From positions 1 to 55,647 of IMG/VR virus record IMGVR_UViG_3300044838_000023: a stretch of 55,647 nucleotides of DNA; one strand, given 5' to 3'. The stretch comes from a virus. Its lineage: Duplodnaviria; Caudoviricetes. The position numbers were made by a program, and so were the translations under genes. Shown here piece by piece: positions 18,461 to 20,194 of the stretch (positions are counted from its first letter, which is position 1; each line of letters starts with the position of its first letter). The notes under the pieces are model-generated. The model saw only the letters and a program-made list of their open reading frames with translations. It had not been told where the DNA came from and ran no database searches.

Positions 18461-20194
18461 ATGCAGCAGGTTGAACTGGCACCCCACCAACATAAAGCCG
18501 TAGAGAGGCTCCACAACGGTAGTATTTTGTGTGGTGGTGTGGGGACAGGTAAGAGTCGTGTAGCCATGCAATACTACAAAGAGAAAGAGGCACCACGTAA
18601 TGTTGTTGTCATCACTACAGCCAAGAAACGCGATAGCCTCGATTGGGAGAGTGAAGCGGTCCTACATGGAGTGGGAACGAGCGCTGACTCGACTCTCTCG
18701 GGCGTTCTTACGGTCGACTCATGGAACAATCTCTGGAAATACGTCGACGTTAGTGACGCCTTCTTCATCTTCGACGAGCAGCGACTCGTAGGGAGTGGCG
18801 CATGGGTGGGCGTATTCCAGAAGATCGCCAAGAAGAATCATTGGATCCTGTTGAGTGCAACGCCTGGCGATACATGGCTGGATTACATTCCGGTATTTGT
18901 CGCCAATGGATTCTACAAGAACAAGACGGAGTTCTTGAGGGAGCATGTCGTCTACTCAAGATTCTCCAAGTTCCCCAAGGTGGATCGGTATATCGCTGCA
19001 GGCCGACTGGTCCGCCACCGAAATGCCCTTCTGGTCGACATGCCTTACGAGAGGCACACTACAAGAGTACTTAACACTATTGATGTTGAGTACAACAAAA
19101 CCCTATTTGATAAGGTGGTGAAAGATAGATGGCATGCTTACGAGAACAGACCCTTGCGGGACGTAGCGGAGTTGTATCGTGTGATGAGGAAGGTTGTCAA
19201 TTCGGACCCTTCTCGCTTGGACTCAATCCGCATGCTGATGGAGCAACACCCAAAGCTGATTGTGTTCTACAACTTCGACTACGAGCTGGAGATACTCCGA
19301 AGTCTGGCCGAACCGATCTCGCTCGACTCCTCATCAACGCTGGATACGAGCTCAGCGAGTGGGAAGAGCAACTCCTCGAAGTTGTCGACAAAATCCCGAG
19401 CGGACACAGTGTCGACATCGAAGCTGGACGAATTACCGTCTTGTTATCTAAGCGGACTGTCCTGCCATTGCGTGATGAAGGAACAGACGTGGTGCAGTTT
19501 CAGCGAGAGCACGAAGGGAGATGGACCAGTACGGAGTCAGAGCTATCTGAGGCAGCTGGAGAGGATCGGTTCGATAGAAACAAATACGCCGTCCTCATTA
19601 CTGATCCGCGAATCCAAGATCCAGAAGGATGGATGCGCGGAGACTATGACGATCGACCAGGATACGAGTACCTCCGAGACGAAGTCCTCGAACGAAAGCG
19701 AGGAGACGACGTCTGGAGTCATTGGTGCGAAGCCAAAGACAGGATCTTCTACCACGACGTTGAGAGAGTTTCCTGTCCCTTGTGTGGGGTCTTCAATACA
19801 GGACCAGCAACTTGGGCGTGGATCCACCAGTGCGGAGACGAAATCAAACTCCAGCATTGCTTCACTGAGAGATGTAGCAGTTGCGGAGTGGAACGGCCAC
19901 AAGCACGAGGAGATTCCAAAGACTGATCGTTGGGTCTATCTTGTGCAAAGCAATAGTGGTTCTGAGGGATGGAACTGTATCGAAACAGACACTGTGGTCT
20001 TCTACAGCCTTAACTATTCATACCGGACATTTGAGCAGTGTCAGGGACGGATTGATCGGCTGAATACGATGTTCACAACTCTGAATTACTACATTCTTCG
20101 ATCTGATTCTTTGATAGACAAACTGATTTGGAAGGCACTTAGTGTGAAGCAAAACTTCAATGAGCGAAAATCGGAGGCAAAATTCACGACTTAA
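18461..20194 (+). CDS. SF2 (SNF2/DEAD-like) DNA helicase with about 190-aa low-complexity insertion
   Basis: GVGTGKS Walker A, FDEQ, LSATP, IVFYNF, SEGWN, QCQGRIDR; Ser/Thr-rich insert about 19307-19873. Confidence 0.88.
   Translation: MQQVELAPHQHKAVERLHNGSILCGGVGTGKSRVAMQYYKEKEAPRNVVVITTAKKRDSLDWESEAVLHGVGTSADSTLSGVLTVDSWNNLWKYVDVSDAFFIFDEQRLVGSGAWVGVFQKIAKKNHWILLSATPGDTWLDYIPVFVANGFYKNKTEFLREHVVYSRFSKFPKVDRYIAAGRLVRHRNALLVDMPYERHTTRVLNTIDVEYNKTLFDKVVKDRWHAYENRPLRDVAELYRVMRKVVNSDPSRLDSIRMLMEQHPKLIVFYNFDYELEILRSLAEPISLDSSSTLDTSSASGKSNSSKLSTKSRADTVSTSKLDELPSCYLSGLSCHCVMKEQTWCSFSESTKGDGPVRSQSYLRQLERIGSIETNTPSSLLIRESKIQKDGCAETMTIDQDTSTSETKSSNESEETTSGVIGAKPKTGSSTTTLREFPVPCVGSSIQDQQLGRGSTSAETKSNSSIASLRDVAVAEWNGHKHEEIPKTDRWVYLVQSNSGSEGWNCIETDTVVFYSLNYSYRTFEQCQGRIDRLNTMFTTLNYYILRSDSLIDKLIWKALSVKQNFNERKSEAKFTT
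19129..19926 (+). CDS. Nested out-of-frame gene inside the helicase; C-terminal zinc-ribbon-like protein
   Basis: 265 codons open; SD aaggtggtga before ATG 19129; globular composition with HWC..CPLC and HQC..CSSC where the helicase frame is low-complexity. Confidence 0.65.
   Translation: MACLREQTLAGRSGVVSCDEEGCQFGPFSLGLNPHADGATPKADCVLQLRLRAGDTPKSGRTDLARLLINAGYELSEWEEQLLEVVDKIPSGHSVDIEAGRITVLLSKRTVLPLRDEGTDVVQFQREHEGRWTSTESELSEAAGEDRFDRNKYAVLITDPRIQDPEGWMRGDYDDRPGYEYLRDEVLERKRGDDVWSHWCEAKDRIFYHDVERVSCPLCGVFNTGPATWAWIHQCGDEIKLQHCFTERCSSCGVERPQARGDSKD

Follow-up and report, generated by a model that had tools for sequence, protein, structure and literature searches.

How can one stretch of phage DNA form part of a replication gene in one reading frame and carry a gene of its own in another? 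The question is raised by a viral contig of 55,647 bp (IMG/VR record IMGVR_UViG_3300044838_000023), which we call the window, where a Snf2-like superfamily 2 (SF2) helicase gene holds a long in-frame insert over which the -1 frame is open as well. An earlier note, made from the letters of the window alone, had proposed that a zinc-ribbon gene is accommodated inside this insert with both frames kept open. We consider it fairly probable that the insert is an unspliced, translated-through passenger carrying its own -1-frame gene. The features on which this reading turns are as follows, in window coordinates.

18461-20194, + strand: open reading frame (ORF) of the Snf2-like SF2 helicase, 577 amino acids, read through the insert (listed ORF, phrog_62 match, alignment, AlphaFold2 [AF2] model).
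19313-19870, + strand: insert of 558 nt, helicase codons 285-470, Ser/Thr-rich and stop-free, a predicted disordered loop (homologue alignment, composition, AF2).
19129-19926, + strand: nested ORF in the -1 frame, 265 amino acids, with its TGA stop at 19924-19926 (ORF list, permutation, codon model).
19112-19121, + strand: Shine-Dalgarno (SD) sequence AAGGTGGTGA, 7 nt before the nested ATG (duplex energy, -11.0 kcal/mol).
19129-19312, + strand: N-terminal 61 codons of the nested ORF, lying over conserved helicase codons 223-284 (translation in both frames).
19135-19137, 19180-19182, 19195-19197, and 19261-19263, + strand: the four N-terminal Cys codons of the nested ORF (translation).
19720-19785, + strand: Cys/His cluster 1 of the nested protein, H198, C200, C216, and C219 (H198-W-C200...C216-P-L-C219).
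19825-19884, + strand: Cys/His cluster 2, H233, C235, H243, C244, C249, and C252 (H233-Q-C235...C249-S-S-C252).
19623-19635, + strand: AGAAGGA-TGG-ATG, a possible second internal start in the -1 frame (SD energy, -5.7 kcal/mol; analogy to related loci).

The host gene matches phrog_62 ('DNA helicase') in PHROGs over amino acids 4-281 (E 2.4e-54) and Helicase_C over amino acids 487-534, the latter just under the Pfam cut-off (22.7 versus 23.5 bits). Alignment with homologues shows the motifs GTGKS, FDEQR, SATPG, and GRIDR to be conserved, and the best Foldseek matches of the structural model are the ISW1, INO80, Chd1, and Rad54 ATPases (E about 1e-11). Two RecA-like lobes, Walker A, DExx, and motif VI are all present and, together with family and fold, place the protein among the Snf2-like members of SF2. 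It shares 57-64% identity with the helicases of Streptomyces phages Psst2 and ClubPenguin and of Microbacterium phage Camille, and when aligned with these, all of its extra length falls between ...YELEILRSLAE284 and D471-VAVAEWNGH. The insert is missing from all three of the aligned cultured-phage homologues and from all 60 of the listed deposited phages.

Read in the helicase frame, the insert has 186 codons, close to the roughly 190 Ser/Thr-rich, stopless codons first described, with 42 Ser and 22 Thr (64/186 residues, 34%) and zero stops. In an AF2 model built from a 20-sequence alignment, both lobes have predicted local distance difference test (pLDDT) values of 80-95, and amino acids 289-468 have values of 24-33 and no secondary structure; the insert sits in the second RecA-like lobe, between the helix at 273-283 and the strand at 473-477. 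A second low-confidence stretch, at amino acids 135-177 (window 18863-18991; pLDDT 38-52), is conserved in sequence among relatives, and its low values probably reflect a limit of the modelling rather than an insert. When the insert was searched for a target-site duplication or terminal repeats, the matches were short, no longer than chance would produce; two of them, 8 nt repeated from the upstream flank and an imperfect 12-nt copy of the 3' junction, were dismissed on this ground.

The nested ORF opens with the ATG at 19129-19131, and its SD is predicted to pair with the 16S rRNA 3' end at -11.0 kcal/mol, as compared with -10.7 kcal/mol for the helicase's own start; the 1st percentile of such pairing at 2,000 random window positions is -10.7 kcal/mol. 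The 265-codon open frame with its ATG and strong SD is thus as the earlier note had it, and the HWC..CPLC and HQC..CSSC clusters are present in its translation. The description of a gene inside an insertion holds for the two frames and for the bulk of the ORF, and fails for its ends: the ORF already starts among conserved helicase codons, 184 nt ahead of the insert, and runs on for 56 nt past it. The closing CSSC (C249-C252) is itself a read-out of the helicase boundary codons D-V-A-V-A. The motifs suggest that the nested protein may bind zinc. The sole Pfam hit is a sub-threshold match to the EHMT1-2 Cys-rich region (E 0.08), and the Atlas neighbours are weak (0.88-0.90), including some zinc-ribbon clusters, and serve as a lead only. 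At the possible second start, TGG occupies the place held by a stop before the ATG in the related loci L023, L070, and L132.

Is the openness of two frames in the window more than chance? When the helicase-frame codons were permuted synonymously, the -1 frame was stop-free in 0 of 5,000 permutations, with a mean of 7.9 stops. In the converse test, with the -1-frame protein held fixed, the helicase frame was open in 1.7% of resamplings that drew on genome codon usage and in 3.4% of permutations within the insert. With 34 long ORFs of the window as its training set, a codon model gives, within the insert, a log-likelihood of -755.5 for the -1 frame versus -774.3 for the helicase frame, and in both flanks it favours the helicase frame by far larger margins. 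Because of the permutation, resampling, and codon-model results together, the -1 frame looks to be the primary coding frame within the insert, with the helicase frame merely held open. Taken alone, the window thus lends the proposed gene partial support, consisting of an unexpectedly open -1 frame, better codon statistics, and a strong SD.

Because the window's nested protein is an orphan, we examined conservation in kin at the same helicase site. DNA loci (designated by L numbers) were found through the flanking motifs rather than through ORF calls, among the best 80 of 548 viral matches and the best 80 of 549 metagenome matches; a further 31 loci lacking one flanking motif, several of them cut at a contig end, stand outside the spacing count. 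In all 132 loci with both motifs, the spacing between them is a multiple of three. Inserts of at least 45 nt occur in 19 of 123 de-duplicated loci (the window included) and range from 57 to 1356 nt, and the helicase frame is stop-free in every one of the 19; within-insert synonymous permutation gives about 21 expected stops, as summed means over the distinct insert loci. Many protein relatives of the helicase are longer than the usual ~390 amino acids, and in each of 15 long homologues, selected on length or on coverage of the full protein, the identical position is occupied by an insert of low complexity that is mostly rich in Ser and Thr. Because the flank motifs are kept and confidently folded, the spacing is always in phase, and the inserts are all stop-free, the helicase must be read through. 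The site is also permissive, since in L068 (2311-2670), one of the 19, a passenger of another kind, a DUF4326 domain, sits there in the helicase frame (E 3.4e-25), with a -1 frame full of stops; to judge by this domain match, L068 shows that the loop takes folded passengers too. The claims that both frames are kept open and that the helicase tolerates a passenger loop are supported among these kin.

The -1 frame of the kin inserts is often divided into several ORFs, with four in L132 and two each in L070, L023, L005, L006, and L097. The internal ones begin with an ATG directly after the preceding stop or up to 4 codons past it, and are preceded by SD-like sequences with energies of -4.9 to -10.8 kcal/mol. 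From the helicase-frame codons of the large inserts, 8-20 stops would be expected in their -1 frame, and 0-3 are present. The inserts of 15 loci were compared by BLASTP with the SEG low-complexity filter and composition statistics, and similarity joined 18 locus pairs in the -1 frame, as compared with a single, close pair in the helicase frame and 2 pairs in the third. Three nested families emerge: a small 'NPxTCxH...CxSC' protein in L006, L023, L024, L090, L093, and L097; a terminal gene ending '...GPLLxWQxF...' in L070, L132, and L138; and an 'HSxCGG...CxCG' module in L079, L147, and L132. For the first nested gene of L023 and L024, identity is 93% over 73 amino acids in the -1 frame, as compared with 58% for the helicase-frame reading of the insert, and 15 of the 23 substitutions in this part fall at helicase-frame position 2, which is -1-frame position 3. 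With similarity nearly confined to the -1 frame, and with internal ORFs that have their own ribosome-binding sites (RBSs), the proposal of a gene in this frame is supported in the kin.

In these same two loci, L023 and L024, the helicase flanks agree at 99% of residues, and the inserts differ at ~20% of nucleotides with several in-phase indels; the insert here evolves, or is exchanged, much faster than the host helicase gene.

The upstream part of the nested ORF, which lies over conserved helicase codons, offers a separate view of the -1 frame. An ATG 136 nt before the FYNFDYEL codons, equivalent to window position 19129 and overlapping conserved helicase Arg-Trp codons, is present in 17 of the 19 insert-bearing loci, and this ATG with a -1 frame open to the insert is found in 15/19 insert-bearing loci versus 13/104 others. 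Cys codons at peptide positions 3, 18, 23, and 45 occur in 68-89% of the 19 insert-bearing loci versus 12-38% of the 104 others, and at least three of the four are present in 16/19 versus 9/104. These Cys codons depend on which synonymous codon the helicase frame uses; Ile, for instance, is ATT in 14/18 insert-bearing loci versus 23/64 others. When 14 insert-bearing lineages were each paired with the nearest insert-less relative, the Cys count was higher in the insert-bearing member in 10 pairs, lower in 1, and tied in 3 (sign test, 0.006). L088, the window's nearest insert-less relative, has GTG, two stops, and two of the four Cys, whereas all of these features are intact in the window.

Six loci that are insert-less or nearly so (L009, L012, L013, L018, L058, and L096) retain the ATG (GTG in L096), the SD, and the open -1 frame, which runs for about 75 codons in L009, L012, L018, and L058. 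This could be either a short overprinted gene older than the inserts or the trace of recent insert loss.

The inserts are patchily distributed. On a tree of the rest of the helicase (122 taxa), 13 Fitch changes are needed for 17 insert-bearing taxa, where shuffling gives a mean of 16.2 and a minimum of 13, so that the distribution is close to random; when the tree is built from the 180 nt that precede the insert, 10 changes are needed for insert presence. Insert-bearing loci are often sister to insert-less ones, and the window's nearest relative, L088, has no insert. A large insert is not seen in deposited phages: of the records with this helicase, 251 of 252 match an insert-less query in one place, over at least 80% of it; each of the 60 listed records matches as a single piece, with lengths of 1143-1218 nt for the 59 that are full-length. 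Two other soil studies yielded contigs that are from relatives and not from this phage; they include some that join the flanks without an insert, one with an insert 96 nt shorter (a multiple of three), short ones about 86-87% identical to 19428-19494 and 19609-19700, and one about 91% identical to 19707-19950, across the 3' junction. Because independent soil contigs match parts of the insert, one of them through the 3' junction, the insert is not an assembly artefact.

We propose that the insert would be removed from neither RNA nor protein, and that its DNA is instead read in two frames. Ribosomes starting at 18461 would read through it, and the full-length Snf2-like helicase so made would have a disordered, Ser/Thr-rich loop of 186 residues, placed between the first helix and the second strand of the C-terminal RecA-like lobe, a site that tolerates extra sequence. 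Ribosomes starting at the internal ATG at 19129, behind its strong SD, would follow the -1 frame as far as 19926, yielding a separate protein of 265 amino acids, with a four-Cys N-terminal module, an acidic middle, and two C-terminal Cys/His clusters; translation of this ORF is predicted from its sequence features. Because -1-frame third positions are helicase-frame second positions, the Ser/Thr richness of the loop would be largely a by-product of -1-frame codons, and the sole clear demand on the helicase frame would be an absence of stops. The window would then be one case of a recurrent class, in which related soil phages have inserts of 57-1356 nt at the same site with one to four -1-frame genes. 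Patchy inserts are as expected of elements gained and lost by recombination between phages, and the inserts may thus be mobile, although a nuclease domain that could account for such mobility was found in no nested ORF. As a guess, the nested protein could be a selfish factor that binds DNA or is associated with a nuclease, or else a protein with an accessory part in replication or in counter-defence.

Several observations weigh against this reading. First, within the window alone, a 1.7-3.4% chance that the helicase frame is open is not overwhelming, and the codon preference for the -1 frame is modest, at 19 nats over 186 codons versus about 140 over 283 codons in the flank. Second, the nested protein has no recognisable relatives. 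The search for stand-alone homologues suggested at the outset returned zero relatives by tblastn against phage records, by pattern and tblastn scans of viral, metagenome, and genome contigs, and in a word-indexed collection of 5.8 billion proteins (206- and 97-amino-acid queries); PDB sequences gave no match, and Pfam, PHROGs, NCBIfam, and PADLOC no family match. When hidden Markov models (HMMs) of the kin nested families were run against the six frames of the window, fam1 matched only the helicase-forced C-terminal end (E 0.055), and fam2 and fam3 did not match the nested protein. HNH or other nuclease domains were absent from the window ORF and ten kin nested ORFs in Pfam and PHROGs at E up to 0.1, as were nucleases in NCBIfam and PADLOC at E up to 0.05; the ten kin ORFs gave nothing in Pfam or PHROG beyond weak rubredoxin-like matches. 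An AF2 prediction of the nested protein from its single sequence has a pLDDT of 37. Third, a nucleotide comparison of L132 with L070 favours no frame; for the distant pairs L132/L070 and L132/L138, nucleotide alignments are uninformative on this point. Finally, in the paired contrasts, neither the excess of open -1 frames (5 versus 1) nor that of stronger SDs (7 versus 5) is significant. Because significance is lost in these contrasts, we treat the raw associations with ATG, open frame, and SD as partly clade effects, with the start codon and SD being partly clade features that are also present in insert-less kin.

The main live rival to a dual reading is that the insert once held a -1-frame gene that is now unexpressed or useless in this phage, with only a stop-free helicase frame under selection. 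The orphan status of the nested ORF is in keeping with such a relic, as is the TGG-ATG in the place where kin have a stop and ATG between nested genes, which could reflect a fusion through stop loss; moreover, some kin are broken, with -1-frame stops upstream in L079 and 6 stops in the -1 frame of the L016 insert. However, an unselected frame of 265 codons should have gained stops, about 7.9 being expected, and the four upstream Cys codons, the ATG, and the -11 kcal/mol SD are all intact, where insert-less L088 has lost or lacks several of their counterparts. We therefore regard decay in the window as unlikely, although it is the alternative to be taken most seriously.

A second alternative dispenses with the internal start and supposes a programmed -1 frameshift within the helicase gene, yielding the helicase N-lobe with a Cys-rich tail beside the full helicase, as with the tau and gamma products of dnaX. 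It turns on one further feature.

19249-19255, + strand: heptamer C CCA AAG, in phase with the helicase codons and formally a site for -1 frameshifting (heptamer scan; probably incidental).

The heptamer has the canonical X XXY YYZ form, stands in the right phase 58 nt ahead of the insert, and is followed by a -1 frame without stops as far as 19926. Nonetheless, it is present in only 1 of the 19 insert-bearing loci, that of the window, versus 6 of 104 others, without enrichment; it consists of the codons of conserved H-P-K residues; and kin share an ATG with an SD instead, their internal ORFs carrying their own RBSs. Frameshifting, which the earlier note had allowed as a way around the insert, thus finds no support in the related loci, and we consider a fusion product improbable.

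It could also be that the Ser/Thr-rich loop is itself selected, as a flexible or modified linker, and that a protein-like -1 frame is a side effect of Ser and Thr codons. TCN, ACN, and AGY codons read one base earlier become NTC, NAC, and NAG, which we reason would give a mixture of hydrophobic and charged residues, and the 15 long homologues, picked by length and coverage, are all likewise Ser/Thr-rich in the insert. But selection on the loop would not readily account for similarity in the helicase frame being limited to one close pair versus 18 pairs in the -1 frame, for the shortage of -1-frame stops in large inserts relative to what their helicase-frame codons predict, or for stop/SD/ATG junctions in the -1 frame and L023/L024 differences that are mostly silent there. 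We find this explanation very unlikely.

The location of the insert beside a highly conserved motif and its patchy spread are typical of introns and inteins, and the protein relative P0015 has a duplicated downstream junction, so removal before the helicase works, by a group I or II intron, an intein, or translational bypass, has to be weighed. Rfam matches are lacking for the window region at E up to 10 and for nine insert-bearing loci at E up to 1; a Hint or intein domain is absent from the 577-amino-acid protein in Pfam; and the insert opens with Pro285 and is followed by Asp471, neither of which is an intein nucleophile by the rule stated in the text of PMC11855218. Moreover, neither RNA excision nor bypass needs insert lengths in multiples of three or stop-free host frames, as are found throughout (132/132 and 19/19, respectively). 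The splicing and bypassing offered earlier as alternatives are not supported, and we hold removal to be highly improbable. Mis-assembly, compensating sequencing errors, or two frames open by luck deserve next to no credence, for although the window is one metagenome-derived contig and no sequencing run was identified as containing this very phage (at most 0.15 of the sampled words were shared), the same architecture recurs in 18 other independent loci, and the soil assemblies match parts of the insert, one of them through its 3' junction, and include the relative whose insert is 96 nt shorter.

The closest precedent for a translated-through passenger with its own -1-frame gene is the ShiLan insert in mycobacteriophage DNA methylases, described as containing an out-of-frame HNH gene, with a stop-free host frame and a disjunct distribution (PMC11855218). 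In that paper's account, intron and intein features are absent, the hidden ORF starts with GTG 18 bp inside the insert with no RBS reported, and the start of the insert resembles the downstream flank (PMC11855218). The helicase insert shares the logic and frame offset of ShiLan: as the latter is described, both occupy a conserved site of a phage DNA-metabolism gene, leave the host frame stop-free, and have a host-frame product that is an unrecognisable predicted loop; the 'third frame' protein of ShiLan, which has zinc-finger regions, is read at the same offset; and both show a disjunct distribution among close relatives and no intron or intein features. The two differ in that the host here is a Snf2-like helicase and that of ShiLan a methylase, and in that the ShiLan protein is described as HNH, whereas matches to HNH or any other nuclease family are absent for the nested proteins of the helicase inserts. 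Relative to the same account, the ORF here starts 184 nt upstream in conserved host codons, with a strong SD and a conserved Cys pattern, and the inserts range over 57-1356 nt, with up to four ORFs with their own RBSs; ShiLan is reported from cultured phages, and the inserts here come from metagenomes only. What is new relative to ShiLan is thus the helicase host, the lack of a recognisable nuclease, the start in host codons, the overprinted Cys pattern, and cassettes variable in size and content.

Actinobacteriophage inteins with frame-3 endonuclease VII-like homing endonucleases are described in a preprint from the ShiLan group (bioRxiv 10.1101/2025.01.02.630785). These resemble the helicase insert, on the preprint's description, in having a frame-3 gene within a translated-through, structurally unrecognisable stretch of the host frame, and differ in that their splicing domains excise the passenger, the helicase insert being without a Hint domain or intein boundary residues. 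Our literature search, which covered articles apart from their supplements, yielded no description of such inserts in helicases.

Overprinted genes are a classical feature of phages, as in Rz1 within Rz of lambda and B within A of phiX174. Here too, a gene lies on the same strand in another frame, and its upstream 61 codons truly overprint conserved host codons. In contrast to the classical cases, most of the nested ORF lies in sequence that the helicase does not need, and the nested part varies greatly among relatives. Because this DNA is dispensable to the host protein, the conflict between frames is reduced to a demand for no stops.

More tentatively, the helicase loop may be a harbour for hitch-hiking genes, one to four at a time and each with an RBS, anchored by the overprinted four-Cys module and gained, lost, and exchanged among soil phages. 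It would constitute a third way of lodging genes beside introns and inteins, with some nested proteins having an unrecognised homing or DNA-targeting function; and because the host frame demands only an absence of stops, new small zinc-binding proteins could arise there. We advance this broader proposal as a possibility about which we have somewhat more doubt than confidence. If a dual reading is correct, an unspliced, translated-through insert would be a general strategy for carrying extra genes in essential phage genes, beyond one methylase family, and would provide a natural system for the study of frame sharing when one frame need only stay open, and of the origin of small Cys-rich proteins. 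Such passengers are invisible in annotated phage genomes, as gene callers forbid long same-strand nested genes, and the protein index that we searched returned none of the nested ORFs of this study. If the dual reading holds, stretches of phage proteins taken for 'low-complexity linkers' may betray a gene hidden in another frame. The helicase also has a surface loop with room for up to 452 extra residues, which is of use for engineering.

Several of the kin inserts have structures of their own. The largest are those of L132 (1857-3488; 1356 nt, four -1-frame ORFs) and L070 (2157-3740; 1284 nt, two), in which the ORFs are parted by a repeated stop-spacer-ATG junction with an SD just upstream, and the helicase frame is open for ~450 codons. 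In L070, an H/C...CxxC repeat occurs three times in the first ORF, a sign of internal duplication there. Within the insert of P0015, the downstream junction peptide AEWNGHKHEP.PKTDR is repeated exactly, and that of P0019, another protein relative, includes a degenerate copy; inserts may grow by tandem duplication across this junction. The helicase match of L005 (1501-3693) extends over 2193 nt, about 630 nt beyond what its 423-nt insert explains, and there is probably another insertion elsewhere in this helicase gene; its nested ORF also starts differently, with an ATG 28 nt before the FYNF codons.

The genes around the window helicase include a nuclease gene and two further ORFs beyond it.

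20277-20912, + strand: gene of an HNH endonuclease with NUMOD4 and HNH_3 (phrog_959, E 1.6e-16); it starts with TTG, lacks an SD, and lies 83 nt beyond the helicase.
21022-21342, + strand: weak VRR-NUC-like ORF (E 0.0055, below cut-off).
21218-21844, + strand: DUF2800-like ORF (E 9e-6), its start overlapped for 125 nt by the VRR-NUC-like ORF.

A further comparison is with free-standing or intron-borne homing endonucleases and 'collaborative homing', as reportedly described by Bonocora and Shub in 2009. The inserts resemble these systems in their patchy presence at one conserved site of an essential gene, with an HNH gene just downstream of the window helicase, and depart from them in that the HNH neighbour occurs regardless of the insert. 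An HNH homologue follows the helicase in 94 of the 116 related loci with enough flank, and a link between it and the insert was dismissed, the gene being present in 13/15 insert-bearing and 81/101 other loci.

Small ORFs on the + strand upstream of the helicase (17370-18460; e.g., 17370-17618, 17859-18107, and 18271-18459) are rich in CxxC-type motifs and have zero Pfam matches. Downstream, the VRR-NUC-like and DUF2800-like pair matches the VRR-Nuc and RecB-like exonuclease pair annotated after the ClubPenguin helicase.

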